Shown here: piece by piece, positions 23,401 through 39,204 of the stretch
Layout: the number at the start of each line of letters is the position of its first letter
How positions within the stretch are numbered: position 1 is the stretch's first letter
Assembly (NCBI GenBank): GCA_903904885.1
Contig: CAIVED010000012.1
Span: 34,130-98,129 of the forward strand
Length of the DNA: 64,000 nt
From: an uncultured archaeon
Lineage (GTDB): Archaea; Nanobdellota; Nanobdellia; Woesearchaeales; CAIVOO01
Direction of reading: 5' to 3'
The notes under the pieces: generated by a model
Seen by the model: the letters and a program-made list of their open reading frames with translations, nothing else
Told to the model about the DNA's origin: nothing
Databases searched by the model: none
Translations under genes and position numbers: made by a program

Positions 23401-24055
23401 TGGATAATTTGCCCGTTGCATCGAACTGATAGTTCCCACCCCTGCCGGAATAGCTTCCCTTCATTCCTTCCACAACAATCCCGTCTTTTGTAAAGACTAT
23501 TTTCGACTTCGACTTGTCTCCGGCGGGAACCTCCAGCAAAGCCCTTTCAGTGGTCTTGGTATTTGTCAAGGAAAGCTTGCCGTCCTTGTCCTTGCCTATG
23601 TCGTTCTTATTGCCGGTCTTCCCTCCAACCAGAACGCCATTGACAAGAAATGCATCGTTAGGCAAGGCTTTTACGTCATCGCCCGTCTTGAAATTCTGCA
23701 GCGCAATTCGCGTATTGCCGTTTCTAAGGTAGGTAACGCCGCCAGCCGACTCTACGCTTATTGGGGAGGGGCTGCTGGTTCCTGTGCTGCTGATCAGGTC
23801 CCTTATGTTAATTGCTGCGCCATTCGCTACCTTGCTAAAATAAGTTTCTGCTCGTTGGGGATTGGCTCTTATGTTATTGGCAGAAGCAACGAAACTCTCA
23901 TCTGATTGGACAGTGGTAGGTTCAGGCTGATGAAGCCCTCCGGAACTGGGAACCGCGGTCTCCGGAGGATAGAGTGGATGCCCCTGCGCATAAACAAAAT
24001 GAACAGCTACGACTAAAATAATTGCCAGCAAAATGATTTTTTTATTCAATATCAT
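20441..24055 (-). CDS. Giant secreted/surface protein (1204 aa), unknown function
   Basis: Signal MILNKKIILLAIILVVAVHFVYAQG. Long low-complexity, beta-rich body. Translationally coupled to the upstream pilin-like gene (4-nt overlap). Confidence 0.6.
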   Translation of the reverse strand: MILNKKIILLAIILVVAVHFVYAQGHPLYPPETAVPSSGGLHQPEPTTVQSDESFVASANNIRANPQRAETYFSKVANGAAINIRDLISSTGTSSPSPISVESAGGVTYLRNGNTRIALQNFKTGDDVKALPNDAFLVNGVLVGGKTGNKNDIGKDKDGKLSLTNTKTTERALLEVPAGDKSKSKIVFTKDGIVVEGMKGSYSGRGGNYQFDATGKLSIENEGNTIRSQGAKVYDTGRFRLYDGSFEKKGDDTSLFFLNGKQSSFVQFNPNGKDLAISTAGYNVVVHSEYLPGDAGHTDGGKTTPLTPAEIDKRAEAAKANPPPKPPNFGGEIWYKTMGNDYIITSNGYVSFKAGKADNSMSLKSQGKISSPALAYAYQSAGAEASFYRGPDPNRQNVFLTTSLGRFKFETYNDKGVRELKADTTVYGNGENPQLIKMSLVSTPTANAMTVDGPGNSKKFMHLDVDAKFFNGNKDTNKDKAVSMDLSKTGDKLNVKLSGETLGAFGDAANKGWNIVPGGGKDFLLSDVKGTVYLGLNSQGLLLENSVATQIKGLEGSQGKYVNILGPDRMRQLLGGDASSVSSQQKTAIMGLSSNSRDGLLSAVRSLSPDTKAKLLKNAAGTEDAKVYQKLFDAQQILENCKTPNNCKAAEDLIKLYANYNDQNSKDSASVNAKQAYFDLFVAASAKPDTKIAADLLNSYIVNNQKGEYFGKADTILQKMKKFNDQDFNNYAAGKLELARYNLLRPENKVLFADESYAQMISYFAKVKPDSPFYGESQDIKKQVTIASLSMIQQNAKNQITENRQKFEETYGQAAGFTTAGTNLINFQTRTDLITWMNSNLNSQAWAMGVFMNLYTKRGMSIDDIQSALSDPTRRRELVAELFPATKDQQTLDMLGSKLVTNGVANPAFQALRRLGKGEDPQNVITNVGPQFWDVVEALVKPNMPEAMPTKTTFFNMPFVQGAELLKLTSGEYAAGAAIQIAVGFGAENLASAALTGVSRIGFESAALTAGQNLLTRAYTGIGAKLFEFTASQAECLFIGTCIGNLPAAKSILTKASWEGRTFIKDGVTYTIKSVDQKTGQIAAESAGKPLQTSIKELAEGSLSKKITIQDSNLVQSIEALQKDAETKAKKDAETVLQGSNKAIADEFAEAKRVKGDMKALVEKNPSIKYDADKGTIEIDAATLSQLKEKDPNVVKDWSHVPCG

Positions 24056-25092
24056 GATGGCTCCTCTATGTTTACCGGTGTCAAGCCTGCCACAACATTA
24101 AACACAACCACCTGCTCTGCCTTTCCTCCCTTGCCGTCATCTGCAGTTACGGTTACCCTGTACTCCCCGGGTGCAGGGGCAGTTGTGCTTATCTCCCCGG
24201 TGTCGGGATTGATTGGAAATTCCGGCGAATCTGTGGAAAAAGTTATATTGTCCCCGTCGGGGTCTGTTGCAACTGCCTTGGCATAAACGCTGCTCCCTGA
24301 AACAAATGCAAGGCTCTCCATATCCTCCATAACCGGAGCGCTGTTGGTTGACAGTTCGTAGGCGAACAGGAACATGTAGGTCCTGTTGTCAATGACCGTG
24401 GAGTTGTCAACGAGCGCAAAAATAAGCGTGTCCCCTGAAACCGGCAGGAGGTTGACATTAAGGCTCGGGAAAAAAAGGTCTGTAATGGTTATTCCCCCCC
24501 GGCTGTTGTCAATTATTTGAGAGGCAACATCATGATAGTATCCCAATTTTATCGGGACAGTGGAGTAAAAGCTTTTGAGGCTGCTGCTTTTTCCCAGGCT
24601 TCTCACCTCAATAGGATAGTTAACAGCAAACTGGACCTTGTCCTGGAATATTGTCGCATTTACAGTAATGTTTCCCTCGCTTATTTCAGTGCCCTCTTTT
24701 TTGAAATCCTCAAATCCTGCAGTGCACAGGGGAATAAACTCTTTCAGGTAATCTGATATTTCAGCCTGCATAGCCTCAATTGTCGGCAGGGTTGTGCTAT
24801 TTCCCGAGAATCCGTAGCCTATTGTAAAAATATCGCTGTCATAGGAATTTGCCGGCGGGTTTATGTAGCCGCCCTGCTCGCCAAGCAAATATATCCCAGG
24901 CACGGCTGTTTTCTGTATGCATTGCTCGACAAAGATTTGCAGCGGCCTAACATCCGCAGAAACCACTTCTCTCCCAGCGGTCGTTGTTGCCTGCTGGACC
25001 TGCATCTGCCTGGTGTAGATAAATACGCCAATTACAGCAATAAGAACCAGCCCTATTACAACAAATGTTGTTATCTGCCCTCTTTTTCCCAT
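24052..25092 (-). CDS. Type IV pilin-like protein (class III signal peptide) with a C-terminal Ig/cadherin-like domain
   Basis: MGKRGQ|ITTFVVIGLVLIAVIGVFIY fits the K/R-G cleavage context of archaeal prepilin peptidases. C-terminal ATDPDGDNITF...VTADDGKGG is an Ig-like repeat. Confidence 0.55.
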   Translation of the reverse strand: MGKRGQITTFVVIGLVLIAVIGVFIYTRQMQVQQATTTAGREVVSADVRPLQIFVEQCIQKTAVPGIYLLGEQGGYINPPANSYDSDIFTIGYGFSGNSTTLPTIEAMQAEISDYLKEFIPLCTAGFEDFKKEGTEISEGNITVNATIFQDKVQFAVNYPIEVRSLGKSSSLKSFYSTVPIKLGYYHDVASQIIDNSRGGITITDLFFPSLNVNLLPVSGDTLIFALVDNSTVIDNRTYMFLFAYELSTNSAPVMEDMESLAFVSGSSVYAKAVATDPDGDNITFSTDSPEFPINPDTGEISTTAPAPGEYRVTVTADDGKGGKAEQVVVFNVVAGLTPVNIEEPS

Positions 25093-25189
25093 GGTTAGGA
25101 ATAGTTTTTGTTTTGATTATTTAAACGTTTTCCCCGAGGATATTTGATGCTTATTTTGCCATATTGTAAATAAATATGGATAGTCACTT

Positions 25190-25221
25190 CATAGTGACAA
25201 AAATAGAAAGGTTTAAATAGT
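25190..25221 (+). promoter_or_regulatory. Extended promoter motif copy 4
   Basis: TCATAGTGACAAAAATAGAAAGGTTTAAATAGTGG, upstream of 25242. Preceded by a GTCAC..GTGAC palindrome. Confidence 0.5.
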
Positions 25222-25241
25222 GGGGGGCCATAAAGCAGCCT

Positions 25242-26264
25242 ATGGACAGGAGAGAATGGCTTAGGACAGGAGTAGTCGCAACTGGCGTGAGTTTGGCGCT
25301 TTCAGTTGGATTAGGCCAGGAGTATAATAATCATGATTCTTCCAATGAATCAGGCAGACCTAAACAAATCGCAGAAGACCCAAATTTTAGATATTTGGTC
25401 AGGGAGCTTTTGCCGGCCCTTATAATTGCAAGCTATGAGAAAGACATCCACAGGAGCAAGGAGAATGAAAGTCTGTACATCGAACATGAGCATCCGTTCC
25501 TAATGTCCAAAAATCATGCAGTGTTGGATGAGAGATACAAACATCTGCTGGATAAATTAAGCAAGGTTGAAAGCAAAACCGGGATTTTTTTAAGCGATGC
25601 CGATAATGCCGCAAAAGCCTTGAGAAAAAGAGGCTATGCTTATCGCTGCGAACATTCTGTGCTTGATGATAAAATAAATACCTTCACTTTTGGAAACATA
25701 ACAGCGGATAAAGCGATTGTTAATCAGGACTGGGGGAAGAATGAAAAAAGAAATGTTGTGTACTTCCGGGATATAGTCCCTATTTTTGAGAAATATGTAA
25801 ATTTCAGGAATAGCGGCGGAATGAGAGACACAGAAGATAACTTGCTGTACATAAATCAAACTGCGCTTGAGGAGTATGCCGCAAGAATATTTAACAGTGA
25901 CCTAAAAGAGGCCAGAAAAAATCCGGCTGAGTTTGCAAATCATATGCTTCTCCGGGAATTCGAAGGGGACTCAATAGAACAGATTTTTGGCAAGATACAG
26001 GAATCTGTGACCCACCATGAAATGAATCATGGGGGGGAGGTTGAGGCACAGCTTTCCGAGCTTGAATACGGCACAACATTCCTTTCACTGGGCACGCTTT
26101 ACAAATCATTAAACAATAATAACAGTGACCAGATAAAACATGAAGCAGCCAAGATAATCTTCGGCAGGTTCAAGCAGAAAGGCTACAATCCGGAAGACCT
26201 GTTGTCAATGAGCCGGGAGAAAATAAAACGCATTGTTCTGGCAATTCATGATTCTGCAAATTAA
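25242..26264 (+). CDS. TAT-signal secreted protein with an HExxH motif (possible zinc metallopeptidase)
   Basis: RREWLRTGVVATGVSLALS and HHEMNHGGE. Confidence 0.45.
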   Translation: MDRREWLRTGVVATGVSLALSVGLGQEYNNHDSSNESGRPKQIAEDPNFRYLVRELLPALIIASYEKDIHRSKENESLYIEHEHPFLMSKNHAVLDERYKHLLDKLSKVESKTGIFLSDADNAAKALRKRGYAYRCEHSVLDDKINTFTFGNITADKAIVNQDWGKNEKRNVVYFRDIVPIFEKYVNFRNSGGMRDTEDNLLYINQTALEEYAARIFNSDLKEARKNPAEFANHMLLREFEGDSIEQIFGKIQESVTHHEMNHGGEVEAQLSELEYGTTFLSLGTLYKSLNNNNSDQIKHEAAKIIFGRFKQKGYNPEDLLSMSREKIKRIVLAIHDSAN

Positions 26265-28228
26265 CATTTAGCACAGTTCTTATCACTTACATCAGGTTCG
26301 CTGTAAGCAGCACCACAGCCTGCAGCGTTGCCGCTCGCAAAATAGAGCTTAACTACACCACAGGTAGTAGCAGGATGGTATATCACCCTGCAGCATCTCT
26401 CTCTGTGCGGAGTTGAAGGAGAATCGTCCCCATATACTTTATATCTCGCCCCCTGATTATCTGATGGTGCGATAGTAAACTGTTCTGCAGCCTTGCGCTC
26501 ATCAATTCTTTTCTGAAGATCGTCTGACTGTCTTTTTGCTTCAGCCTCTTGTTTTGCCTGTTCCTTGAAATAACTGCTTGGCGCAAGAGCCCCCGCAACC
26601 TTATTCCCATTCATAAAGTTAGAAGATGCCTGCATTAAATTCTCATTGGTACAGGCATCTTTTCGTCTCGTATCGCTCCATCCAGCATACATAATATCAC
26701 ACACTGGCTGGTCAGGATTGGGAGGCGCTAATCCCTTATACTGGTAATTTTGATAATAAGCTCCGGTAGGCTTCTGATAGTAATCAGCTAGCAAAGCATT
26801 TTGTACAGCAGTCCTCACTTCTTCAACAGTTTTGTCGTTATTTGTTGCATCTGTAATTTTCAGGAAGAATGCATTTTTTGGATTATCCCCATATTGAACA
26901 TAAGCCCAGTTTCCAAAAAGCTTAAGTTTGACGTCCATAGCTTTTTTGCCTGTTGAGGGATCAGAAACAGTCAAACCTTTGATACCTTTATCGGGCTGCT
27001 TAACATCTGTAACCTGTGTTAATTTTGTCACTCCTGTGCATTCTCTTGGAGGACCTTCCCCCGCCGTAGCCTGCCCCGTAATTGGATTAACACTGCAACT
27101 ACCCCCTTCTTTATTACACTGGCAGTCCCCATTAACACAGCTATAGCTTGAAAAAGGCTCGCCTGCTACAGAAAGATTAAGTGATTTTATTGAGTTGAGC
27201 ATTATGTTGTCTACAGCGTCAATTCCATTCTTGGAAGCAATAATTGTATTTACTGACTCTCCTATTTTCTCATTTATTACTATCGGAGCGCCTGTATCTT
27301 TGTCCACATTAAGTTTCAAGTTGTCATAGGGCCCTAAATAGTTTCCTCCAGCATCCTTTGTTGCCGAATAGCTTGCGCTTATGAGCGCTGCCTGGGCGCC
27401 GTCATTTGAAATTGACAAATCCTTGCCTGTTATGTCAACGCAATTCGTAGAAACCTTGCAGCCGCTTTTGTCAAATGAGAATGAGAATGAGTCTGTGCCG
27501 ACAACACCAAAGTCAGAATTATACTTGCTGTTGACATGTATGCTGCCTTCAACCTTGAATGTTCCGTCATTTTGGGGCGTTATTTTTCCGCCGGTTAAAT
27601 CTATTGTTTTGCCATGGCCATCATTAAGCTTTCCTTGAGATATTGAACCGGAAGAGTCTATCACAACCGGCTTGCCCGTTGAATCAGAAGTGTAGTTTGT
27701 CTTCTTGTCCGGCGATAAAATCAAAAGATTTCCATCGCTGTCAACCTTGAATGTGTACCCCGCCTTAGCCATATTGGCAAGCCCCTCTGTTGTAAACGTA
27801 TCGCCGTTTGCTGTGGTGAATGTGCCATCGGCATTGCGCCTAGCCATTCCATTATCCGCAACAGTTATTTGGATAGCTCCGCTGCTCTTGGTCTGTAAAT
27901 AAACAGTTGCTGCCTTGCCGTCCTTAAGCACTGATGGGTCACGTGCAGCAGCAGTTTCATAGGCTGCAGGATTAGTGCCTGCAATAGCCGGGTCTGCTTT
28001 GATTGCTGCCTTGTATGCATCAATGTTTTGCGTTAAATCATAATCCGGATGATTTTGGAGATATTGCGCATACCCCTGAGGATTATCCCGGGCATAGGCA
28101 ACCTGGTCTTGAGGGTTCAGTTCATTAAATTGCTGATCTTGGGCATAATTAATCTTTGTATTTAATATTAATATAGAGGATACTAAGATAACAAGCGCCA
28201 TTAACCCAAAAACAATACTTTTCTTCAT
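26261..28228 (-). CDS. Large secreted protein (655 aa), Cys-rich C-terminus
   Basis: Signal MKKSIVFGLMALVILVSSILIL. G/T/S/N-rich beta-type composition. Confidence 0.55.
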   Translation of the reverse strand: MKKSIVFGLMALVILVSSILILNTKINYAQDQQFNELNPQDQVAYARDNPQGYAQYLQNHPDYDLTQNIDAYKAAIKADPAIAGTNPAAYETAAARDPSVLKDGKAATVYLQTKSSGAIQITVADNGMARRNADGTFTTANGDTFTTEGLANMAKAGYTFKVDSDGNLLILSPDKKTNYTSDSTGKPVVIDSSGSISQGKLNDGHGKTIDLTGGKITPQNDGTFKVEGSIHVNSKYNSDFGVVGTDSFSFSFDKSGCKVSTNCVDITGKDLSISNDGAQAALISASYSATKDAGGNYLGPYDNLKLNVDKDTGAPIVINEKIGESVNTIIASKNGIDAVDNIMLNSIKSLNLSVAGEPFSSYSCVNGDCQCNKEGGSCSVNPITGQATAGEGPPRECTGVTKLTQVTDVKQPDKGIKGLTVSDPSTGKKAMDVKLKLFGNWAYVQYGDNPKNAFFLKITDATNNDKTVEEVRTAVQNALLADYYQKPTGAYYQNYQYKGLAPPNPDQPVCDIMYAGWSDTRRKDACTNENLMQASSNFMNGNKVAGALAPSSYFKEQAKQEAEAKRQSDDLQKRIDERKAAEQFTIAPSDNQGARYKVYGDDSPSTPHRERCCRVIYHPATTCGVVKLYFASGNAAGCGAAYSEPDVSDKNCAKC

Positions 28229-28274
28229 GTTCTCAAACTTTTTATTATCTACTGTTATTTATATTTTACTACTC

Positions 28275-29054
28275 TCAAATCCAGGCATATTTAAGCGCGA
28301 ATGAATATACATAAGGCTGGCCGTTTATGATTGTGTTCTCATCAACCTGGTCAACTACAACATTCCCGCTGCCAAAATAGCCTGCGTATGATTTGATGCC
28401 ATTTTGATAGGATATGTCCAGGAGGCTTCCTGACCTGAAGGAGAACAATGCTTCGGATTGCTTGTCAAGATACTCGTTAGAAGCATTTATCATCAATGCT
28501 AAAGGAACATTAACCTCTGCAGAGAATTTTTGCATTGAGCTTTTGGAATTATCTTTTGCTATGCCTATGGGATAGTCAACAGTGAACAGGACTTTTGATG
28601 GCAATATTAATGCGGTTGCAGAAACATTGCCAAATTCAAAGCTATAACCCTCATTCTGGAATGAACTCAGATTGCCGACGCAATCAGAAAGGCGCCGGTT
28701 CATGTAGGTAGAAAGCGAGGATTGAACATAATCAATGCTTGTCCTGTAAAGTGTGATATTATTTTGCTGTGATGGATCAGGGTATAGATAATAAGGAACA
28801 TCATAGAAACCTACTCTTATGTATTTATCAGGCAAATAATCCCCGCCTTGTGCGCTAACGTCAACAACAGCATACTCTGCAGTTTTCGCAACACACTGGT
28901 CAACGAATGTCTGTATAGGCACAACATCCGGAGGAACAGCTCTCTCTAAACTGGCTTTTGTAGTCACCCCGGTCATGTAAATAAAAAACGCGACTACAGC
29001 AAGTACAACAATCCCAAGAATGATGAATGTGGTTATCTGCCCTCTTTTCCGCAT
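28275..29054 (-). CDS. Type IV pilin-like protein (class III signal peptide), paralog of 24052..25092
   Basis: MRKRGQ|ITTFIILGIVVLAVVAFFIY. Confidence 0.55.
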   Translation of the reverse strand: MRKRGQITTFIILGIVVLAVVAFFIYMTGVTTKASLERAVPPDVVPIQTFVDQCVAKTAEYAVVDVSAQGGDYLPDKYIRVGFYDVPYYLYPDPSQQNNITLYRTSIDYVQSSLSTYMNRRLSDCVGNLSSFQNEGYSFEFGNVSATALILPSKVLFTVDYPIGIAKDNSKSSMQKFSAEVNVPLALMINASNEYLDKQSEALFSFRSGSLLDISYQNGIKSYAGYFGSGNVVVDQVDENTIINGQPYVYSFALKYAWI

Positions 29055-29117: not shown

Positions 29118-29270
29118 TTACTTCTTTGCCTTTCCCAGTATCCTGAAGACCTTTGTTGCGCACTTTGGGCATTCTCCCTTCATTGCTCTCATGCCGTTCT
29201 TCATGACCACTTCCTTGCCGTTCTTAATCTCAACGCCTTTCTTGCACTTCATGCATCTTCCTTCTACCAT
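29118..29270 (-). CDS. Small zinc-ribbon protein (50 aa)
   Basis: Manual translation MVEGRCMKCKKGVEIKNGKEVVMKNGMRAMKGECPKCATKVFRILGKAKK. CxxC...CxxC. Not in the ORF track because it is under 60 aa. Confidence 0.4.
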   Translation of the reverse strand: MVEGRCMKCKKGVEIKNGKEVVMKNGMRAMKGECPKCATKVFRILGKAKK

Positions 29271-29496: not shown

Positions 29497-30006
29497 TCAA
29501 GGCATCCTCTTCAATGCGTTCAGAAGATAGTCTTTCACGCCGGCTTCTTTTTTCGGCTCCTCTTCCTTCGGCTTTTCAGCTGCAGCCTCTTTCTTCTGCT
29601 CTGCAGGAACCTTCAGCAATTCCTGTATCTTTGCCATGGAATCCTCTGGAATCTGCTTCTGGGGCCATTCGAAATTAAGCCCGTCGCCGCTCTTTCTCGG
29701 GATTACATGAACCATTGCATGGGCATGCCTCTGGCCAGCAGCAGGGCCCTCGCTAATCATAACATTTGTGCCCTCTGCTCCCGCAGCATCAAAAAGAATT
29801 CCCGCAAGCTGCTGGGCCACCACAAACATTCTTTTCACCACATCCTCCGGAACCTGCAAAAGAAGTGTTATGTGCTTTTTCGGGAAAATAATCGCATGGC
29901 CGAAAGCAGCCGGCCTCGGGTTCAGGACAGCGAGTATCTCCGAATCCTCATATAGTTTTTTTGTTCCTGTTTTCCCGCTCACATAATCGCATATTTCGCA
30001 GCTCAT
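29497..30006 (-). CDS. HIT-fold protein with a degenerate histidine triad (HxHxxxH) and a K/E-rich C-terminal tail
   Basis: N-terminal CEICDY zinc motif. The triad region reads GQRHAHAMVHVIPR, where Met replaces the central nucleophilic His. Tail is KKEAAAEKPKEEEPKKEAG. Confidence 0.65.
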   Translation of the reverse strand: MSCEICDYVSGKTGTKKLYEDSEILAVLNPRPAAFGHAIIFPKKHITLLLQVPEDVVKRMFVVAQQLAGILFDAAGAEGTNVMISEGPAAGQRHAHAMVHVIPRKSGDGLNFEWPQKQIPEDSMAKIQELLKVPAEQKKEAAAEKPKEEEPKKEAGVKDYLLNALKRMP

Positions 30007-30602
30007 GAGAACATCTCTGTTATTTTGTCAAGGTCTATCTCTTCTTTTTCCGGCTCTTCAGGCTTTTTGCCGCCCTCATTCCTTTTTTCCTGCTCTTTTT
30101 CCCCGGCTTCCTCATTTTCCTGCCCAGCACTTCCGCCGGATTCAAAATCAACATTTGGGAAATAATTCTTCAGCGTCTTTTTCAGCCCCAGGTAAAAATC
30201 ATCAGTTTCCTTCTGGTTCTGCGCATTGAACGGGATGTCAAAATTCAAGCCGTCTCCGGAGAATCTGGGGATTGCGTGCAGTATCATGTGCGGCGCCTTC
30301 TGCCCCGCAACAGCCCCGTTTGCAAGGAAAAAATTAATCCCCTCGGGCTTCAGCACCTTGAACAGAAGCTCTGAAATTCTCCTGCAGATTACCGCAAGAT
30401 GTTCGACCTCATCCTTCGGCAGCTGGTTGAAAATCGCGTAGTGGTTTTTTGTCAGGATTAAAAGATGCGCCGGATTCGCGGGATAAATGTCAAGCACAGC
30501 GACAACTCGGTCGTCCTCGTAAATCTTCTTTGACGGGATTCCGCCAGAGGCAATCCCGCAGAATATGCATTGCTGTCCTTCCATGGATACTGATTTGTGC
30601 AA
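30003..30602 (-). CDS. HIT-fold protein with a degenerate histidine triad (HxxxH) and an acidic/K-rich tail
   Basis: CIFCGI zinc motif. The triad region reads QKAPHMILHAIPR, where Ile replaces the central His. Tail is ENEEAGEKEQEKRNEGGKKPEEPEKEE. ATGA-coupled to the downstream HIT-like gene. Confidence 0.65.
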   Translation of the reverse strand: MHKSVSMEGQQCIFCGIASGGIPSKKIYEDDRVVAVLDIYPANPAHLLILTKNHYAIFNQLPKDEVEHLAVICRRISELLFKVLKPEGINFFLANGAVAGQKAPHMILHAIPRFSGDGLNFDIPFNAQNQKETDDFYLGLKKTLKNYFPNVDFESGGSAGQENEEAGEKEQEKRNEGGKKPEEPEKEEIDLDKITEMFS

Positions 30603-30699
30603 TATTGTTTATATACTTTTTTATGTTTTGCGGGCATAAAAATTCAAAGACATGCAACAGGATATTATCAGTTATCTTTTTAAAGGCAAATAATATACT

Positions 30700-33600
30700 T
30701 TGGCTGTGGAAGCTTCCAGAAGGGTAAGGATGGAAGTGGTGGCAGTAGTCCTGGCCATCATTGCTGTACTCGCAGTTGTATTTATAGCAGGGCAGGTCTA
30801 TAAAACCCCTGCCGAAACACCTGCGGTTTCTGTGAAAAGCGAATTGGCAGAGGGTTCATACACAAAGGAAATCCAGCCCGATAAAATTTCATTCGTTGAA
30901 AACAAGACCTCCACTCCGCTGGCAGAGGTCAGCTTCAGCGGGCTTAAAACAGACATCAAGGATGTTGATTCAAAGATAGTTGCATCTTCAAATCTCATGT
31001 TCAGGTCGGGCATATTTGCAGTCAGGGATGCAGGGGCAGTTTTCAGTGAAGCCAGGATAACAATGAAGAAAACCGGCAATGTTAATGTAATTTTTTACTG
31101 CCAGGACTTTGACTTTGAAAAAGAATCCTGCCCGGGTGACTGGGCCAAAAGCGACATTCCCTTCACCCAGACAATGAAAGAGGTTACATTCACAGTAAAT
31201 CATTTTTCAGCCTATGCCCCGGGCGAATTCGGGATTTTAAGCGAGTTCCAGGGCAATGGCGTCTGCCGCGCCTATGCAAACAATGACAGCATCCTTACCG
31301 GCAACATCACTGATTGCCCAGATCAAAGCATATTCATAAATGCCTCAAATATCGTTTTCGACTGCCAGGGCTATTCCATCCTCAACAGCAGTGGGGGATT
31401 TTGGGCGCAAAACCTCAGCAATATAACAATAAAAAACTGCAATGTAGATGCCCATGGCAACGGGATTAACCTGATAAATATCAACAGCAGCAGCTTGCTC
31501 AACAACTCAGTTTACAATGCACTTGGCGGCGGCATTAACGTTTATCTCAGCTCCGGAAATTTATTTGCAGGAAACAACGTTTCAAAATCACAGGGCAGCG
31601 CAGGTTTTGTAATTGACACATCCAGCAATAATCATTTTGAGAACAACCGATTCCACAGCAATCTTAACCGCGGATTAAGCATAGGTGTCGGGGACAACAA
31701 TTCCTTTGTGAACAACCAATTTTACAACAACCATCACGAGGGGGCAACCGCAAATCTCGGTGAAAACAATTCCTTCGTGAACAACAGCTTTTTCAACAAC
31801 TCTGCGCATGGCCTTACTTTTTCCTGGGGGACTCTCAATTTATTTGAGAACAACAGCTTTTCCAACAACACAGGAGATGGATTGTACGTATCCTCTGTAG
31901 AAAACAACACCTTTGTTGGCAACAATTTCTCAGGCAACCATAATAACGGCTTTACGTCATATGGCGGCTCTAACTCTTTAATCAACAACCGGGCATTTAA
32001 CAACCAACTCGAGGGTATTTACATTTTTATGACACCCGGTTACTATTTGATTAACAATTCTGCTTTTAACAACCCAACAGGCTTTTACCTAACAAGCACA
32101 ACCGGAAGCGTTCTAGAGAACAATTCCGCATTCAACAACAATTTGGGCTTTTACGTTTCATACTCAGATAATGCAACGGTTTTAAACAACACCGCCTTTG
32201 GCAATGTAAAGGGTTTTGAGCTTGCAAGCACAACAAACAGCACCATAGCCGGCGCCTACGCCTACAGCAACAACATAGGATTTTTCCTGCATCCCTCTGA
32301 CATCAGCCTAACTTTTGAAAACAGCACCATAGCGGGCAATTCAGGCCAGGACCTTTTTCTTGAAGGAACCTGGCACCTCTACAACCGCTCATTCAAAAAT
32401 GTGCTTCTCGGCCCCAATACATTCATAGGGGACAATGCGACAGCAATTATTTCCCCGCTTGTAATCTACAGCAACCTGTCTTCAATAGACTATGGCAATA
32501 TGACGCTGAGCAATGTTTCGCTGAATGGCTCTGCTTCCCTGGAAGACAATTACATCTATCTTAACTCTTCAAAAATACCCGCCCTGAACATATCTGCCAA
32601 CGTAACATTCAGGAACCTCCCGTGGACATCAATGCCCCAGCTATTCAAAGACGGCGCAAGATGCGATGACAATCCTGCACTGTGCAACATAACCGCCTTT
32701 GACCCGTGGACAAGGACCCTTACTGCCCAGGTTTCCTCTTTTTCAAACTACACAACTGGAAATGCATCAACCTGCTTCAATGCGACTGATGATTTGTACA
32801 TTAATGGAAATGCGGTGATATGCGATAGTTATTTCCGGGTGAATGACACAAATGACGATGGGGTTATAATAATCAACAAATCAGGGATAGCCCTCACACT
32901 TGGCACAAGCGACATTTTCTACCTTTCGGGAAATGGCTCTGGAAAGGGGGTTGTTGTTGAGAATAAAACAGGCGTGACAATTATCATGCGCAATTCAAAT
33001 AGCCCGCACATTGGTTATTACGGAACAGGGATTTATGTCAAAAACTCAAGGGACATTACATTATATAGCCCTGCAATCGGCGATTCAGATACGGGGCTGC
33101 TATTGTACAATTCTACCAATGTGATAGTCCAAAAATCCTCTGATACTATTTATTGTGCCTTTGAAAGCAATACCCAAGGCATTGTAATCTATCTGGGAGG
33201 AAACAATAGCATCAATTCTTTTGATAGGCTGATGTACAATTCTTATGGGATAAATGTAACTGACTCTTCCGGGAATAGGATAATTTCCAACTATTATTCC
33301 GGCTATTCTCCCACTTCTGTAGGTGATGTCAGATGGAATTCAAAAGCAGCAATTTACCTCAGGAATGCAAATAACCTGGTAGTGAGCGGAATGCAGTTTA
33401 CTGATAACACGTTGTCATTTGATATGATAAACTCAACTAATATATCATTGGCAACATTCCCTCTTAATGTTTATCGTCTATCTTTCTCTAACAGCAGCAT
33501 GCGCTTGAACTCGTCCAAGATTAATATTCTTAGGGGGGCTAATTATATGGTTCCACTTTATCTAGTCCGATCGCCAATAATTGCCCAGGATTCGGAACTA

Positions 33601-35556
33601 AACATCAGCGGGGTAACTTTTGCATCAGCAAGCACACTAATAACCCTGCTTAATTCAACAATAGACATATCCAACAGCACGTTCTCTGATTCTGACGTTG
33701 GCATTGCGATTAACAAAACATCTGGCACCAGCAGGATAGTCAACAATTCTTTCACAACTCCCCAGAACATCAGCATCTATGCCGAGGACTCGTCCGGAAT
33801 AATGATTTCAAATATAATTTCAAGCGCAGTTTATTATCTTTACTCTGTAAATTCAAATTCAACAGTCTCTGCAATTCTAAACAACCTGCTTTTCTCGGAC
33901 TCCAGTTCAAGGGTAAATGCAACCAATCTGACTTTCCCTTCGGCTAATGCCTCAATCTCATATCTCAATGTTGTTTTAAACGGCACAATCAATACCTCCT
34001 CCGGGGTTTATCTTCTCTACAATCTTTCAGGAATTGACCCATCAATTTCCCCGGGGCTTAATGCAAGCGCCCAGGTGACATTGCGCTTCCTCCCATGGCC
34101 TATCACCCCATTTGTTGAAAAAGACGGAGTGAGATGCGACAATACATCCTCCTGCTCCGTCCTGGGCTATGACAACAGCACAGGAACCCTTGTTTTCAAT
34201 GTTATGGGGTTCTCAAACTACAGCTCATCAAACCCGAATCTTCCCGGGACTCCTGACACCACACCGCCGACACCCCCTGCTGTTTACGACGGCCTGAACT
34301 TTGTTGACTTCAACTGGACAGGAAGCAACACAACATTATATGCATCATGGAACGGCTCCTTTGACCGAAGCAACATATTTTACAGCTACAGGATAATGGA
34401 CAAAAACGGCTCATGCTACAACGGCCAGTGCGCATTCCAGTTTGCCGGGAGCGCACAGCAGATTACAGTTTCAAACCTCAGCCTTGCGATATGCCACAAC
34501 TACCTTTTCAAGGTGCAGGCAGAGGACACTTTTTACAATGTGGCAAATTTATCGTCATCAGACGGTATAACCATTGAAATTGAAAACCCGACGGTGCTTG
34601 CAATTGACAGCTCCACTCACCCGAGCCAGTCCATTTTTTACCCGAAAAGCACGGTAAGGCTCAACTGGTCTGCAAGCGACACAAATCTTACAGGCTGCTC
34701 CTCAGGAATTGCAGGCTACTCCTATCTCTTTGACCAGGATTCTGGAAGCTTCCCTGACGGAACAATTGAAACAAATGACACAAACGCCACGTTCACAAAT
34801 GTGCCCAGCGGCACATGGTATTTCCATATAAGAGCGGTGGACAATGCAGGGAATGCCGGCGACACGCTTGTGCGCACAGCAAGAGTGAACGTGACAGAAG
34901 TTTCTGTAAATCTGAATCCATCCGAAACCCCAACGCTTCTGAGCAATGCAACAATATACGGAAGCATAACAAAAAACTCCTCCGACCTCCTTAAAATATA
35001 CAAAAATGACAATAATACCGCAAATATTTCAATTAGCCAGGCTCAAACTGCATTCAATTTTACAGTTAATCTTGACATGGGAATTAACACAATATACGCA
35101 AATGCCTCGCTTAATGGCTCGGTTGCTGCAAAATCAAACACACTTTACATAAGAAGGGCGAATGAGACGAGGCTGAACGCAACCGGGTTCACGGTTTCCT
35201 ACAGCGGGGGAACACTGACAGATTCCTCTGCAAGCAGCCTGGTTTCAACGGCTTCTGCAAATTCCAATTTCGGAATAGGAAAATCCGCAGGCAGATTGTT
35301 TTTGTTTGTTACATCCCCTTCAGCAAACATTGCAGCAAGGACAGGATACGTAACAAACAACACGCTCTTTGACCAGATTAACCCTTCGGTGGGATTCCCG
35401 CTTGAAATAGAGCAAAACATGATAAGCACAATACTGAACTACCAGGATATCCATCTGGAGGGCAACCAGTCTGTGCAGACAGGAAGGTACACGCTTGTGA
35501 TAACAAACAACGGCACTGTGGGAGGGAAGCCCCAGATTCTGGTAAGGATAACATGA
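30700..35556 (+). CDS. Giant surface protein (1618 aa): N-terminal signal anchor, right-handed parallel beta-helix (PbH1/NosD-like) repeats, heavily N-glycosylation-sequon-rich
   Basis: MAVEASRRVRMEVVAVVLAIIAVLAVVF anchor. About 20 tandem ~22-aa repeats of the NNSFVNNQFYNNHHEG type between residues ~290 and 540. NxS/T sequons run throughout. C-terminal region TPPTPPAVYDGLNFVDFNWTGSN resembles FN3. Confidence 0.75.
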   Translation: MAVEASRRVRMEVVAVVLAIIAVLAVVFIAGQVYKTPAETPAVSVKSELAEGSYTKEIQPDKISFVENKTSTPLAEVSFSGLKTDIKDVDSKIVASSNLMFRSGIFAVRDAGAVFSEARITMKKTGNVNVIFYCQDFDFEKESCPGDWAKSDIPFTQTMKEVTFTVNHFSAYAPGEFGILSEFQGNGVCRAYANNDSILTGNITDCPDQSIFINASNIVFDCQGYSILNSSGGFWAQNLSNITIKNCNVDAHGNGINLININSSSLLNNSVYNALGGGINVYLSSGNLFAGNNVSKSQGSAGFVIDTSSNNHFENNRFHSNLNRGLSIGVGDNNSFVNNQFYNNHHEGATANLGENNSFVNNSFFNNSAHGLTFSWGTLNLFENNSFSNNTGDGLYVSSVENNTFVGNNFSGNHNNGFTSYGGSNSLINNRAFNNQLEGIYIFMTPGYYLINNSAFNNPTGFYLTSTTGSVLENNSAFNNNLGFYVSYSDNATVLNNTAFGNVKGFELASTTNSTIAGAYAYSNNIGFFLHPSDISLTFENSTIAGNSGQDLFLEGTWHLYNRSFKNVLLGPNTFIGDNATAIISPLVIYSNLSSIDYGNMTLSNVSLNGSASLEDNYIYLNSSKIPALNISANVTFRNLPWTSMPQLFKDGARCDDNPALCNITAFDPWTRTLTAQVSSFSNYTTGNASTCFNATDDLYINGNAVICDSYFRVNDTNDDGVIIINKSGIALTLGTSDIFYLSGNGSGKGVVVENKTGVTIIMRNSNSPHIGYYGTGIYVKNSRDITLYSPAIGDSDTGLLLYNSTNVIVQKSSDTIYCAFESNTQGIVIYLGGNNSINSFDRLMYNSYGINVTDSSGNRIISNYYSGYSPTSVGDVRWNSKAAIYLRNANNLVVSGMQFTDNTLSFDMINSTNISLATFPLNVYRLSFSNSSMRLNSSKINILRGANYMVPLYLVRSPIIAQDSELNISGVTFASASTLITLLNSTIDISNSTFSDSDVGIAINKTSGTSRIVNNSFTTPQNISIYAEDSSGIMISNIISSAVYYLYSVNSNSTVSAILNNLLFSDSSSRVNATNLTFPSANASISYLNVVLNGTINTSSGVYLLYNLSGIDPSISPGLNASAQVTLRFLPWPITPFVEKDGVRCDNTSSCSVLGYDNSTGTLVFNVMGFSNYSSSNPNLPGTPDTTPPTPPAVYDGLNFVDFNWTGSNTTLYASWNGSFDRSNIFYSYRIMDKNGSCYNGQCAFQFAGSAQQITVSNLSLAICHNYLFKVQAEDTFYNVANLSSSDGITIEIENPTVLAIDSSTHPSQSIFYPKSTVRLNWSASDTNLTGCSSGIAGYSYLFDQDSGSFPDGTIETNDTNATFTNVPSGTWYFHIRAVDNAGNAGDTLVRTARVNVTEVSVNLNPSETPTLLSNATIYGSITKNSSDLLKIYKNDNNTANISISQAQTAFNFTVNLDMGINTIYANASLNGSVAAKSNTLYIRRANETRLNATGFTVSYSGGTLTDSSASSLVSTASANSNFGIGKSAGRLFLFVTSPSANIAARTGYVTNNTLFDQINPSVGFPLEIEQNMISTILNYQDIHLEGNQSVQTGRYTLVITNNGTVGGKPQILVRIT

Positions 35557-36011
35557 ACAAGAAATCCCAGTTTTACATTTTGACCGCAGTCGTGCTTATT
35601 GCGATTACATTCGGGCTTTTTTCCTCGCAGAAAATGATTCCAAAACCGGAAAATGCATTCGGCCTGCTGGTTGACAACTATCTCAAGGAGGCGCCGTTTG
35701 CTGCAAACTCAGGCAATCTTGAAGATTTCACGCTGAGATTTTACGATTTGGCTGCATCAAAAGAACCGGATTTTGAAATGGTTTCATTCTATGTTTCCCA
35801 GGACAATGTTTCGGTGCTTAGCCTTGCAAAACCAACCATTTTTATAAACCAGCATAATGTTTCATTCAGGCAGAGCATCGTTTTCCAAAGGCCGGATGCT
35901 GCGATGGTTTCAATAGGCCAGGAGCAGTACAGCATAGACACCGCAACCACCGGGATTAAAACAATATTTTTAATGAGCAAGGAAGACAGCAGGAACGTGA
36001 GGGTAGAATGA
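35553..36011 (+). CDS. Putative pilin-like protein (class III-like signal), ATGA-coupled to the giant protein
   Basis: MNKKSQFYILTAVVLIAITFGLF. Confidence 0.45.
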   Translation: MNKKSQFYILTAVVLIAITFGLFSSQKMIPKPENAFGLLVDNYLKEAPFAANSGNLEDFTLRFYDLAASKEPDFEMVSFYVSQDNVSVLSLAKPTIFINQHNVSFRQSIVFQRPDAAMVSIGQEQYSIDTATTGIKTIFLMSKEDSRNVRVE

Positions 36012-36493
36012 GAAAAAAAGGGGTTTCAGAATGGGTTTCGTATGTTCTTCTCACAGGATTTGTAGTGGTCCTTGCGGCCTTTGTCTACAGCTGGATGACC
36101 AGCTATACAACCCAGACAACATCTGATGTAAAAGAAAGGGTTTTTAACAGCGAATTATGCGACCTTATGGGGGTAAGCGTTAACGCCTGCATCAACACAT
36201 CAACATCGCAAAGTTTATATATAAATGTAACCAACAGAGGTGATTTAAGGACAACAAGGCTGGTGTTCAGGTTTTTGCAGTTGAATGGCACCTCGATCCA
36301 AAACATGTATGACATTGAAACCGACAGCATTGTAAAGCCGCAGTACACAAAAAGCTTCAATGCGACCATGCTTAACCTTACATGGCTTGTCAACAGCGGC
36401 ACCAAGGTTGAGGTCGTGCCGGCAACTGAAAAGGAGGGCTTTTTGGTTGTCTGCAGCGAAAAAAAGGGAGAGGCATATTTCCACAGCTGCTGA
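36008..36493 (+). CDS. Type IV pilin-like protein (class III signal peptide)
   Basis: MRKKG|VSEWVSYVLLTGFVVVLAAFV. Multiple NxT sequons. Confidence 0.55.
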   Translation: MRKKGVSEWVSYVLLTGFVVVLAAFVYSWMTSYTTQTTSDVKERVFNSELCDLMGVSVNACINTSTSQSLYINVTNRGDLRTTRLVFRFLQLNGTSIQNMYDIETDSIVKPQYTKSFNATMLNLTWLVNSGTKVEVVPATEKEGFLVVCSEKKGEAYFHSC

Positions 36494-36829
36494 TTGTTGA
36501 TTATAAAAAGAGGCGAAAAATTGAAAAAAGAATTTTCAGACCTTGAAAGGGAGATTGTGGAGATTGAGGTTGAGAAATCCCGCCTTAACAGGGAAAAGGC
36601 AATGATTGTGCTCAACAAAAGCCTTTTCATATATTTCTGCTTTCTTTTCGTTGGCATAATTGGGTTTATCAACTCCTATGTTTCAAAAACAGTGCTTAAC
36701 ATAATAATATTCGTGGGCCTTGTTGTGCTGGTTATAGGAACCATTCCCTACGTACAGACCATGAAGGCTGAAGAGAAAAAATTAAATACGCTTATTGATG
36801 ATTTGAAAAAAAGAGGTGTCAGATTATAA
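36494..36829 (+). CDS. Small membrane protein with an N-terminal coiled-coil
   Basis: Charged coiled-coil-like N-terminus followed by two hydrophobic helices. Confidence 0.45.
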   Translation: MLIIKRGEKLKKEFSDLEREIVEIEVEKSRLNREKAMIVLNKSLFIYFCFLFVGIIGFINSYVSKTVLNIIIFVGLVVLVIGTIPYVQTMKAEEKKLNTLIDDLKKRGVRL

Positions 36830-37350
36830 TGTTCAAGAAAAAAAAAGGCGTTTCACCGCTTATAGCAACGGTCCTGCTTATAGCATTTGCCGTTGCATTG
36901 GGCGCTGTGGTTATGAACTGGGGAAGGACCTATGTTGAGGATACCGCATCCCTCGCAAGGGAAAAGTCAGACACTGAAATAAAGTGCAGCTCTGATGTCA
37001 AGCTTGAATTTCTTTCAATCAAAAATGTAGAGAAGCTCTGCTATGAATACACCACAACAACCAAGCTTAATATGACCATTGAAAACACCGGGAAGCTGGA
37101 CATTGTCGGGCTGCAGGTTACCGTTGTCGGGGAAAAGAACATAAACACCACAGAAATAGACCTTAAGGCAGTCAACGCCTCGCTGAAAAGGTCCCGCTTT
37201 TACAGGAATGAGAGCATAGAGATGAGCGATCTTGGCGCCCCAACCCAGGTAAGGATAGTGCCGGAAATAGAGGTAAGCGGAAACAGGATATCCTGCCCTC
37301 AAACCGCGCTTACAGAGGATACTTTCCTGAAAAAATGCAGTGAGATTTGA
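36829..37350 (+). CDS. Type IV pilin-like protein (class III signal peptide; archaeal pilin/archaellin-type N-terminus)
   Basis: MFKKKKG|VSPLIATVLLIAFAVALGAVV. The GVSP[LV]IATVLLIA pattern is typical of archaeal type IV pilins. Confidence 0.65.
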   Translation: MFKKKKGVSPLIATVLLIAFAVALGAVVMNWGRTYVEDTASLAREKSDTEIKCSSDVKLEFLSIKNVEKLCYEYTTTTKLNMTIENTGKLDIVGLQVTVVGEKNINTTEIDLKAVNASLKRSRFYRNESIEMSDLGAPTQVRIVPEIEVSGNRISCPQTALTEDTFLKKCSEI

Positions 37351-37778
37351 GGATGGCTGAGCGATCAAAAGCAGTTACCCTGTTTATTTTTCTCTTTTTC
37401 ATTTTTATCATGCTCGGCGCAATAATATTCATTTTTACATACAGCACATACAGGAACACATCAAACTACAGCACTTCAACAACGAAAAACTCTGTTGACT
37501 GCACAGGCTATTCATTCAGGGTTGTGGGCGGGACGCTTTCCTACGAAAACACAACGCTTTCGCTCGATGTTGACACGACACTTGCAACAGAAAGACAGAA
37601 AAATTCCCTTGTTTTTGTGGTCAACGGGAAAGAAACTGAAAGCCGGCCGGTTGATTTCACAGTCAGGACCCAGAAGCTTAAAATTGATGTTGAAAAGCCC
37701 GGGGCATTTGATGTTTATGTCAAGGGCTGCCCCGATATAAAAAGAAAATGCGATTTGGCGGCGAACCAATGCACATGA
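37347..37778 (+). CDS. Putative pilin-like protein
   Basis: MRMAERSKA|VTLFIFLFFIFIMLGAIIF. Confidence 0.45.
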   Translation: MRMAERSKAVTLFIFLFFIFIMLGAIIFIFTYSTYRNTSNYSTSTTKNSVDCTGYSFRVVGGTLSYENTTLSLDVDTTLATERQKNSLVFVVNGKETESRPVDFTVRTQKLKIDVEKPGAFDVYVKGCPDIKRKCDLAANQCT

Positions 37779-38515
37779 AAAAAGGCCAGCTTTGGATTTC
37801 AGCAGTGCTTTACGTTCTGATAGTTGTTGTTGTCATAGTTATTGTACTTGAAGCCCTTACCCCGGTTATTGAAAACCTGAAAGACAAGGCAGTTTTCAAC
37901 AGGATAAGGGACACATTTTTGACGATAAATGAATATGTGAGGGATGTAAGCTCAGAGGGTAGGGGAAGCCAGAGGACCATTCCGGTTGAGATACAGAAAG
38001 GCAGCCTCTCTGTTGAGAGCAATGAAATAAAATGGAACCTTAACACAGAGGCAAACATCCTTGAGCCAAGGACCCAGGTGGAGCTTGGCAATCTCATAGT
38101 TGTTTCAAACGGGGATGTTGATGCCTATGAGACAAATGAAAGCACATTTGTGCTTCGAAATTCCAGGGCATTTTTTGAGTTCTATGAATATGGGTCGCTT
38201 CTTAATTCCACAAACCAGACAAACAGCTCAGGGGGCATCGTTGCATTCAAGGGGTCTTCAATTATAAAAAGGACAGCCTATGCCCAGGGCTCAAATCTCC
38301 TTAACCTTACTCCATCCTATTCATTCTTTGTTCCGCCGGATGATGCGAACACGATGATAAGAGGATATACTGTTTTGCCCAGGACGGGCTCGGGCATTGG
38401 AAAAGCGAATGTTCTTGCCCATGTCAACACAACAAATTATGAATATGACATTGTTTTTACATTAGAAAGCCAGGCAGACTACCTCCAGGTTGACATGGTG
38501 AAGGGGCTGAACTGA
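37748..38515 (+). CDS. Type IV pilin-like protein (class III signal peptide)
   Basis: ...MHMKKGQ|LWISAVLYVLIVVVVIVIV. The true start is probably the internal Met at 37769 or 37775. Confidence 0.55.
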   Translation: MRFGGEPMHMKKGQLWISAVLYVLIVVVVIVIVLEALTPVIENLKDKAVFNRIRDTFLTINEYVRDVSSEGRGSQRTIPVEIQKGSLSVESNEIKWNLNTEANILEPRTQVELGNLIVVSNGDVDAYETNESTFVLRNSRAFFEFYEYGSLLNSTNQTNSSGGIVAFKGSSIIKRTAYAQGSNLLNLTPSYSFFVPPDDANTMIRGYTVLPRTGSGIGKANVLAHVNTTNYEYDIVFTLESQADYLQVDMVKGLN

Positions 38516-38793: not shown

Positions 38794-39204
38794 ATGAACC
38801 CCGACTGCATCTTCTGCAAGATTGTGAAAGGCGAAATTCCCTGCGCAAAGGTTTATGAGAACCAGAAGTATGTGGCGTTTCTAGACATAACGCCTGTAAA
38901 TCCAGGCCATACGCTTGTTATTCCGAAAGAACACTATGAAGATTTATTGAACACCCCTGATTCTGTTTTGGACGGAATGCTTAATGATTCCAAGAAAATA
39001 GCAAAGGCAGTCCTGAAGGCGGTGGGGGCAGAGGGTTTTAATTTAACGGTAAATGTTGGCCCTGTTTCAGGCCAGGTTGTTCCACACCTTCATATTCACA
39101 TAATGCCCCGCTTTCCTAATGATGGCCATCACCTTTTCAAAGGCGGAGCCTACAAGGAAGGCGAAATTCAGAAGGTTGCTGAGAAGATAAGGCAAAACCT
39201 TTAA
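38794..39204 (+). CDS. HIT family hydrolase (canonical histidine triad)
   Basis: MNPDCIFCKIV... and VPHLHIHIMPR (HxHxHxx). Start moved to the internal Met of ORF 38734..39204. Confidence 0.8.
   Translation: MNPDCIFCKIVKGEIPCAKVYENQKYVAFLDITPVNPGHTLVIPKEHYEDLLNTPDSVLDGMLNDSKKIAKAVLKAVGAEGFNLTVNVGPVSGQVVPHLHIHIMPRFPNDGHHLFKGGAYKEGEIQKVAEKIRQNL

Follow-up and report, generated by a model that had tools for sequence, protein, structure and literature searches.

A conserved gene pair of nucleophile-less HIT proteins in Woesearchaeota and Nanoarchaeia that looks like a non-enzymatic adaptor

Histidine triad (HIT) proteins are a textbook case of covalent catalysis, with the middle histidine of the triad as the nucleophile in Hint, Fhit, GalT and aprataxin alike. 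To our knowledge, naturally dead HIT proteins are rare, avian HINTW being the usual example. What, then, is the role of two adjacent HIT genes that both lack this residue in an archaeon with a very small genome? The question is raised by 64,000 nucleotides from an uncultured archaeon of the Woesearchaeales (assembly GCA_903904885.1, contig CAIVED010000012.1, positions 34,130 to 98,129; hereafter the window, with positions counted from its first letter). The window carries an overlapping minus-strand gene pair, here called gene A and, downstream of it, gene B, which a sequence-only reading had described as translationally coupled HIT-fold proteins with charged tails and without the nucleophilic histidine. 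Comparison across public genomes and metagenomes indicates that the A:B family is a robust, widespread elaboration of the known HIT fold, and in this pair an old enzyme fold seems to have been turned into an adaptor without enzymatic function, of a kind not described before.

Both proteins belong to the HIT fold. A and B match Pfam HIT PF01230 above its gathering score (1.2e-19 and 6.1e-15), and AlphaFold2 models built from family alignments have confident HIT cores, with a mean predicted local distance difference test score (pLDDT) of 81.7 for A and 75.2 for B. When these models were compared with the PDB by Foldseek, the top matches were all HIT proteins at probability 1.00. The triad region of each protein (AGQKAP-H-M-I-L-H-AIPR in A, AGQRHA-H-A-M-V-H-VIPR in B) aligns by phmmer, free of gaps, with the AGQxxx-H-x-H-x-H-xxPR of HIT proteins of solved structure (3l7x, 3o0m and 1y23), and in the models the motif falls in the expected beta-strand (residues 100-107 of A and 98-104 of B). 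It follows from this gap-free alignment that the nucleophile position is occupied by Ile101 in A and Met98 in B, the residues named by the sequence-only reading, and the codons read directly from the DNA agree. The sequences H-M-I-L-H-A-I and H-A-M-V-H-V-I do not fit the H-phi-H-phi-H-phi-phi by which catalytic HIT proteins are defined. An N-terminal CxxC is indeed kept in both proteins (CIFC in A, CEIC in B), and the standalone HIT gene at 38794-39204, also singled out earlier as canonical, encodes an intact triad without a tail and is presumably the genome's active paralogue. It had been allowed that the triad of B might be merely shifted, with the upstream histidine of HAHAMVH taking the catalytic place. 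That histidine (H94), two residues before the first triad histidine, aligns to Val108 of human HINT1 and is confined to the subclade of the window, being present in 26 of 69 B-type proteins, so the triad of B is not shifted.

How general these changes are was assessed by a residue census, in which 102 A-type and 69 B-type sequences were aligned, along with human HINT1, to a HIT profile (the HVHLH motif of HINT1 fell into register as expected); HINT1 numbering is used below. The nucleophile position, H112, is never histidine in either type. It is Ile in 45, Met in 41, Leu in 10 and Val in 3 of the A-types, and Met, Leu, Ala, Thr, Ile or Val in the B-types. Because the substitutions recur in all 102 A-type and 69 B-type homologues, they are not due to chance or sequencing error. 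Around the missing nucleophile the A-types keep H51, H110 and H114 (each in at least 98 of 102), Q106, the ribose contact D43 (100) and the base-pocket residues I18, F19 and I22 (81, 98 and 90, respectively). The B pocket is far more degenerate: H51 is kept in 61 and H110 in 65 of the 69 sequences, D43 in only 20, the base-pocket positions vary, and the third histidine, H114, is His in 37, Asn in 19, Asp in 5 and Glu in 4. The flanking histidines that had been noted in both window proteins are there, and the HxxxH pattern, which the sequence-only reading had proposed to look for in orthologous pairs, holds in nearly all A-types, but the B-types keep it only in part, through erosion of the third histidine. 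By the same token, the suggestion that both proteins bind nucleotides is plausible for A, with its conserved pocket residues, and not for B. In the family alignments of both types the CxxC is reported as invariant, as are two histidines (that of the GH motif and the first of the triad) and the AGQ…PR frame. The CxxC and these two histidines we take to be the zinc ligands of this HIT subgroup, which may be why they have outlasted the catalytic residues.

The two types of gene also travel together. When A was searched against 5.8 billion proteins, about 65 relatives were recovered from Woesearchaeota, Nanoarchaeia and unclassified DPANN metagenome-assembled genomes, all carrying AGQ[KR]A[PQ]H-phi-phi-phi-H-x-IPR, with the canonical HxHxH appearing only among weaker matches. 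B, queried likewise, returned 27 relatives that have lost the nucleophile in the same way, and when HMMER was run over all 1.84 billion cluster representatives, 825 clusters (50% identity) scored E<=1e-30. In a scan of one genome per GTDB species, which yielded 80 loci, an A-type gene was directly followed by a B-type gene on the same strand in about 37 archaeal (DPANN) loci, whereas the bacterial matches were lone canonical HIT genes. Among 36 orthologous junctions, 15 have the ATGA stop/start overlap seen in the window, 2 have TAATG and 8 more have a gap of 6 nt or less. In addition, 15 of the best 150 representatives from the 1.84 billion-protein set are in-frame single-chain A-B fusions (including P0110, P0112-P0115, P0124, P0150, P0158, P0164 and P0228), in which only the B tail is retained and, in 14 of the 15, the first domain is dead. 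In P0110, P0112, P0113 and P0115 the second domain has no start Met and directly follows a short linker, and the A tail is missing, so that a frameshift does not account for them and the fusions are genuinely in frame; P0111 may be artefactual. HIT proteins dimerise, with the sheet running on across the interface, so a fusion of two unequal halves is the product expected of an obligate heterodimer, and the existence of such chains supports an A:B pseudo-dimer. The coupled arrangement of two minus-strand open reading frames with a 4-nt overlap, which we confirmed from the letters, had already suggested a heterodimer, and this idea now has independent support from the A-then-B order in about 37 genomes, the 17 of 36 junctions that overlap and the 15 fusions.

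Within the window, no paralogue is closer to A than B is, or to B than A is (40% identity over 113 aa). Neighbour-joining on the HIT core, without bootstrap and including the fast-evolving B-types, places A-types in one clade and B-types in another, and the clade common to both is entirely nucleophile-less, with canonical HIT proteins outside it. We therefore have moderate confidence that A and B descend from a common ancestor already lacking the nucleophile. The simplest history would be loss of the nucleophile followed by duplication, before the radiation of the Nanoarchaeia/Woesearchaeota class.

Both proteins had been described as ending in disordered, K/E-rich, low-complexity tails. The tails are disordered and K/E-rich, but they are not mere low complexity, as each ends in a conserved motif of its own. 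In the window, the tail of the upstream protein A, ENEEAGEKEQEKRNEGGKKPEEPEKEE, runs into IDLDKITEMFS, and that of the downstream protein B, KKEAAAEKPKEEEPKKEAG, runs into KDYLLNALKRMP. The linkers, both predicted by AlphaFold2 to be disordered, differ freely in length and sequence across the family. The A terminus, by contrast with its linker, follows the consensus [VI]-[DSN]-L(87%)-D(97%)-[DK]-I(84%)-[AST]-x-[LM]-[F 54% / L 40%] and then 1-3 residues (n=177 unique; for example …VSLDDIANLFK), with F or L at the last hydrophobic position in 94%. The B terminus is [ED]-[ND]-Y(78%)-[LFM]-[LI]-[KR]-[QS]-L(68%)-[RK]-R(94%)-[IML]-P(97%)-COOH (n=69; for example …ENYLLKQLRRIP). Two copies of the motif are present in one A linker at loci L014 and L041. 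No genes other than these HIT genes had A- or B-type termini in the ~800 kb of DPANN DNA examined. The conserved terminal motifs are probably the key to function, and the B tail, as a predicted basic amphipathic helix, could bind membrane or nucleic acid. Pairing between the acidic helix of the A tail and the basic helix of the B tail cannot be the only role of the latter, because B tails are still present in L033, L038 and the fusions, all of which have no A tail.

On balance we favour, as probable though far from assured, an obligate A:B HIT pseudo-dimer that forms no nucleotidyl-enzyme intermediate and acts as a ligand-binding adaptor tethered through its tails. The two-gene operon conserved across Woesearchaeota and Nanoarchaeia would encode this pseudo-dimer, which would have given up covalent nucleotidyl-histidine chemistry. 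A would bind but not turn over a ligand of nucleotide type (AMP-X or NpnN-like), in the manner of engineered Fhit H96N and HINT1 H112N, which lack the middle histidine and still bind nucleotide substrate without turnover, and B would serve as its structural partner. The acidic amphipathic A tail and the basic amphipathic B tail, ending in R-[IML]-P, would tether the dimer to two different partners or surfaces, so that the complex would work as a ligand-sensing adaptor or scaffold and not as a hydrolase. Ordinary phosphoramidase activity would be supplied by the tail-less canonical Hint.

Several points weigh against this picture. The A:B interface is deduced from operon structure and fusions, and the loss of catalysis is argued by analogy with the known role of the middle histidine in Hint, Fhit, GalT and aprataxin. 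The strict conservation of H110, H114, Q106 and D43 in A could mean that some chemistry survives. In the fusion P0112 a canonical HAHIH first domain is joined to a dead B-type domain, and B-type partners therefore accompany a live HIT domain in some lineages. Finally, synteny across 36 loci revealed no consistent operon partner.

The first of the alternatives is that A and B are still enzymes, either through non-covalent attack by water, phosphate or a group of the substrate, positioned by the retained H110 and H114 and a new Lys/Arg at the Ser107 position, or through action on a non-nucleotide substrate. Nearly all pocket residues save the nucleophile are kept in A-types, and a cationic residue has been gained beside the phosphate site: 88 of 102 A-types have K or R there, as do 43 of 69 B-types, with Thr in a further 17. 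The residues that replace the nucleophile are, however, aliphatic (I/M/L/V) and would fill the phosphate site, while the third His and the ribose-binding Asp are each missing from about half or more of the B-types. The equivalent of Asn99 is Ala in 98 of 102 A-types, with the Asn displaced to one position later (B-types have Asn in 27 of 69), and in every characterised catalytic branch of the superfamily that we know of the middle histidine is the nucleophile. An alternative nucleophile, as the sequence-only reading had also entertained, finds no good candidate in the census: the sole new conserved polar residue is the Lys/Arg at the Ser107 position, and it alternates between the two. Residual catalysis is thus an unlikely explanation, if one to be kept in mind.

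A second alternative concerns the A tail, which might mimic the C-terminal helix of the archaeal ribosomal stalk (aP1/aP0) and dock on aEF1alpha, aEF2, aIF5B or ABCE1. The tail of Pyrococcus horikoshii aP1, EEALAGLSALFG, contacts aEF1alpha through L100, L103, L106 and F107, and the substitution F107S abolishes aP1 binding (PMC4267659). The A tail has L, I, L/M and F in register with these four residues; both proteins have a flexible, charged, K/E-rich linker that leads into a terminal amphipathic helix with the spacing L-x-x-[LI]-x-x-[LM]-F-x-COOH (phi-x-x-phi-x-x-phi-F-x-COOH), and NDK, aEF2, L7Ae or S28e lies within a few kb of the pair in 5 to 7 of 36 loci. Yet the tail is nearly invariant, EEA[AL]AGL[GS]ALFG, in 120 aP1 proteins that include those of Nanoarchaeota and Aenigmarchaeota, so that the stalk terminus is fixed even within DPANN, whereas the A tail shares none of its polar or Gly positions (AGL and ALFG are missing), has an invariant Asp where the stalk has Ala, and has L in place of F in 40% of sequences even though loss of F107 kills aP1 binding. 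Because the non-hydrophobic positions, the Asp and the F/L position all differ, the likeness is limited to the amphipathic register, and the two tails are not homologous. aP1 was not found in the window or in the 80 fetched loci. Genes for aEF1alpha (48375-49658) and aEF2 (5194-7368) are present in the organism. We regard stalk mimicry as distinctly unlikely.

Two other ligand-type motifs were considered for the A tail. The PCNA-interacting-protein (PIP) box fits poorly: with I taken as the hydrophobic anchor, the L-x-x-I-x-x-L-F of the A tail lacks both the Gln and the aromatic residue at position 7 of the generally known consensus, and 40% of tails have L instead of F. Mimicry of the FtsZ C-terminal peptide (LDD-I compared with LDDFI..GID) is rejected, failing on the core of that peptide. 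The archaeal FtsZ peptide that SepF recognises is built on a nearly invariant GID (PMC8178401); the Woesearchaeal FtsZ tails read here likewise have a GID or GIE core (LGIEFIN in the window, LGIDIVE in L034, LGIDVLN in L008), and no A tail has one.

A further possibility, very unlikely in our estimate, is that A, B or both are dominant-negative or targeting partners of the canonical Hint, forming mixed dimers with one live site. The canonical tail-less gene lies 8 kb from the pair, P0112 combines a canonical and a B-type domain, and avian HINTW (ASW/WPKCI) is a known HIT paralogue without the triad (PMC12026566). Adjacency, overlap and fusion nevertheless join A with B in nearly all genomes and not with the canonical gene, the first domain is dead in the other 14 fusions, and the canonical gene is unlinked to the pair in the fetched loci. 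HINTW is conceptually nearest to A/B, both being natural HIT-fold proteins without the catalytic motif, but it is an independent, bird-specific event with an active partner, HINTZ, whereas A and B are both dead; it is not known to have tails bearing short linear motifs or an operon, both of which A/B have. Mixed dimers have been proposed for HINTW with HINTZ, and HINTW would act through such dimerisation and not by catalysing. The notion that A and B are pseudogenes in decay, or that a frameshift or assembly error has made two genes out of one, can draw on the loss of catalytic residues alone. It is effectively refuted, since both open reading frames are uninterrupted in about 37 species-level genomes and in hundreds of clusters from metagenomes, and since the fold, the Zn-type ligands and the terminal motifs are strongly conserved.

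Among characterised systems, the best matches of A/B in sequence and structure are the bacterial and archaeal CxxC Hit/Hint proteins (Bacillus subtilis Hit, 1y23; Mycobacterium smegmatis, 3o0m; Streptococcus mutans, 3l7x), which have the same fold at ~30% identity and share the CxxC, the GH motif, the AGQ loop, the IPR strand end and the C-terminal helix. They differ from A/B in that A/B have I/M/L/V for the middle His and K/R for the Ser/Thr before the triad, add long disordered linkers with conserved terminal motifs, and occur as a heterotypic pair, whereas each CxxC Hit/Hint protein is the product of a single, homodimer-forming gene. The substrate-trapping mutants of the middle histidine (5ipb, 5ipc and 2fhi) are also among the fold matches, but Fhit H96N and HINT1 H112N are engineered point mutants of homodimers, and A/B are natural and ancient and have further changes in the pocket. 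The GalT branch consists of internally duplicated HIT repeats with one live site, and the A-B fusions are likewise two unequal repeats in one chain; GalT keeps the nucleophilic His of HxHxQ, however, and of the fusion halves only the first one of P0112 has such a His. Each of the two window proteins has a single domain and showed no affinity to GalT in Pfam or NCBIfam scans.

Nor does either protein qualify for an established enzyme family. No NCBIfam equivalog cut-off was reached by A or B in the NCBIfam scan: the ATP adenylyltransferase model NF052622 gave 47 and 28 bits against a cut-off of 290, the HinT model NF045834 gave 56 and 52 bits against 130, and PRK10687 gave 27.8 bits against 206. 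The Hint nucleoside pocket (I18, F19, I22, D43 and I44) is scored as at least 90% conserved in A-types and as variable in B-types, and the Ser107/His114 leaving-group pair of Hint is broken by the K/R at position 107. With respect to DcpS and aprataxin, the DcpS_C match arises through the shared HIT core alone, the triad is broken and there are no extra domains. Since the defining catalytic motif fails, A and B should not be classed with the Hint, Fhit, GalT, DcpS or aprataxin enzymes. A PADLOC match to the Thoeris ThsC-like defence HIT proteins is of a generic HIT-level kind (E ~1e-10) and was set aside, the neighbours being pilin-like, surface and DUF5679 genes instead of ThsA/ThsB types. 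In the full-text literature, of which coverage was incomplete, we found nothing on HIT pseudoenzymes or on the HIT proteins of Woesearchaeota or of DPANN at large, which amounts to no more than an absence of evidence.

The coordinates of the pair and of the related features are collected in Table 1.

Table 1. Features of the A-B gene pair and related HIT genes. Positions are those of the window unless a locus is named.
Feature	Positions	Strand	Basis
Gene A, A-type nucleophile-less HIT protein, 193 aa	30003..30584 including stop at 30005-30003 (coding 30584..30006)	minus	list of open reading frames and letters; P0001 100% identical over 193 aa
HIT domain of A, residues 5-118	30231..30572	minus	AlphaFold2 pLDDT mostly >90; best structural matches 3o0m, 1y23, 3imi, 3l7x
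Degenerate triad of A, H99-M-I-L-H103, Ile101 at nucleophile position	30276..30290	minus	codons CAC ATG ATA CTG CAC
Disordered K/E/G-rich linker of A, ~residues 143-181	30042..30158	minus	AlphaFold2 pLDDT <50 for 156-180; length and sequence unconserved in family alignment
Conserved C-terminal motif of A, I-D-L-D-K-I-T-E-M-F-S-COOH	30006..30038	minus	family consensus; predicted short helix
ATGA stop/start overlap of A and B, 4 nt	30003..30006	minus	read from letters; recurs in orthologous junctions
Gene B, B-type degenerate HIT protein, 169 aa	29497..30006 including stop at 29499-29497 (coding 30006..29500)	minus	P0083 100% identical
Degenerate triad of B, H96-A-M-V-H100, Met98 at nucleophile position; preceding H94 clade-specific	29707..29721	minus	codons CAT GCA ATG GTT CAT
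Disordered K/E/A/P-rich linker of B, ~residues 133-157	29536..29610	minus	AlphaFold2 pLDDT <50 for 134-158
Conserved C-terminal motif of B, K-D-Y-L-L-N-A-L-K-R-M-P-COOH	29500..29535	minus	family consensus; basic amphipathic helix (predicted)
Putative TATA-like box TATATAAA, preceded by an A-rich run like a B recognition element (BRE)	30610..30617	minus	~26 nt upstream of ATG 30584; suggested by the letters
Separate canonical HIT (Hint-like) gene, tail-less	38794..39204	plus	intact HLHIHIM; Pfam 2.6e-28
Canonical HIT genes with linker and FDF-type terminus	L051:796-1771, L058:1989-2477, L071:1148-1627		L051 has two canonical HIT genes in tandem

The open reading frame of gene A is listed from TTG 30602, and its likely start is instead ATG 30584, from which the protein begins MEGQQCIFCG; public gene calls use the same A start and agree with the lengths of both proteins. 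The product of gene B begins MSCEICDY. Upstream of gene A, the minus strand carries the BRE/TATA-like element AAAAAAGTATATAAA, whose position would place TTG 30602 inside the promoter. With a TATA-like box this close to ATG 30584, the A-B transcript is probably leaderless or nearly so.

Many relatives vary the architecture around the HIT domain. Most A-types beyond the window subclade have an N-terminal helix (…LTEEQxKxLEEKLKNMSPEELxEFQKQQ) that is missing from the window A. At L033:9962-10771, L034:9950-11233 and L038:9923-11023, and in P0043 and P0233, helical repeats of the form NPxLKxLLxxNPxxL…FAGVD lie between the HIT domain and the tail; their Pfam matches to the ubiquilin/STI1-like domain are sub-threshold (E 0.004-0.4) and serve as hints only. 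Some A-types (L023, P0121, P0129, P0133, P0197, P0237 and others) have a Cys-rich motif, YH..C…F.S..EA…G..PC.C, either within the linker (L023:9908-10807) or replacing the terminal motif. It resembles the Ada metal-binding domain PF02805, again as a hint only, at E 0.005-0.03 and below the cut-off. A third type of conserved C-terminus (…QDINFDF, …ETKFDF, …KDEFDF), also placed after a linker, is found on canonical-triad HIT proteins of DPANN archaea (Aenigmatarchaeota and unclassified).

Turning to the surroundings of the pair, which proved uninformative as to function, the only frequent neighbour is a convergent A24 prepilin/preflagellin peptidase just downstream of gene B, present in 20 of 36 DPANN loci (for example L002:11107-12000 on the minus strand); the homologue in the window lies 14 kb from the pair, at 15223-16077 on the plus strand. 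NFACT-like, NDK, aEF2, L7Ae and S28e genes occur near the pair in 5 to 8 of the 36 loci. The neighbouring genes in the window encode surface proteins of pilin-like and beta-helix type and a zinc ribbon. The pair sits within a gene cluster with class-III (type IV pilin-like) signal peptides (MRKRGQITTF…, MGKRGQITTF…), at 24052-29054 on the minus strand and 30730-38515 on the plus strand, which includes a 1608-aa beta-helix/NosD-like surface protein with many N-x-S/T sites. The zinc ribbon is a 50-aa protein with two CxxC motifs (DUF5679, E 6e-10), encoded at 29121-29270 on the strand of gene B, some 220 nt further downstream. Among the fetched records, several titled 'uncultured Methanosarcinales archaeon' (L001, L002, L010, L011, L025-L027, L031, L032, L065 and L072) carry the HIT cassette among Woesearchaeota-like neighbours, and because their gene content resembles that of loci labelled Woesearchaeota, the Methanosarcinales label is probably wrong.

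Two more distant genes of the window have features reminiscent of stalk or ribosomal proteins. At 54032-54574 (minus strand) a 181-aa protein without a Pfam match is coiled in its N-terminal part, has a long low-complexity region rich in P, M and Q, and ends in …PMPVKKKGLFG-COOH, which recalls stalk or MinD-type terminal helices. At 62858-63640 (plus strand) a 261-aa protein combines an L11-like N-terminus, MPKQTVEAMIEGGKASAAPPLGPAL, with a G/A/K-rich C-terminal extension, and in related contigs this gene is not followed by the usual L1-L10-L12 genes.

A bolder version of the adaptor idea, which we offer as speculation with little chance of being right in full, is a DPANN-specific signalling adaptor in which A holds an unhydrolysed adenylylated metabolite or alarmone (for instance Ap4A or an aminoacyl-adenylate) and the stalk-like acidic A tail and the basic R-I-P tail of B bridge two core machines. 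If true, such a bridge, for example from a translational GTPase to membrane or nucleic acid, would couple nucleotide status to translation or division in host-dependent, biosynthesis-poor archaea.

Apart from that speculation, Nanoarchaeia and Woesearchaeota, with their very small genomes, keep a matched pair of dead HIT proteins as an overlapping operon or a fusion. Conservation of this kind in genomes with few dispensable genes suggests an important role other than catalysis, for example in scaffolding or in sensing a ligand. The A:B pair offers a clean case in which to study the conversion of an enzyme fold into an adaptor, and its two short tail motifs could be used as baits for new hubs in DPANN cell biology.

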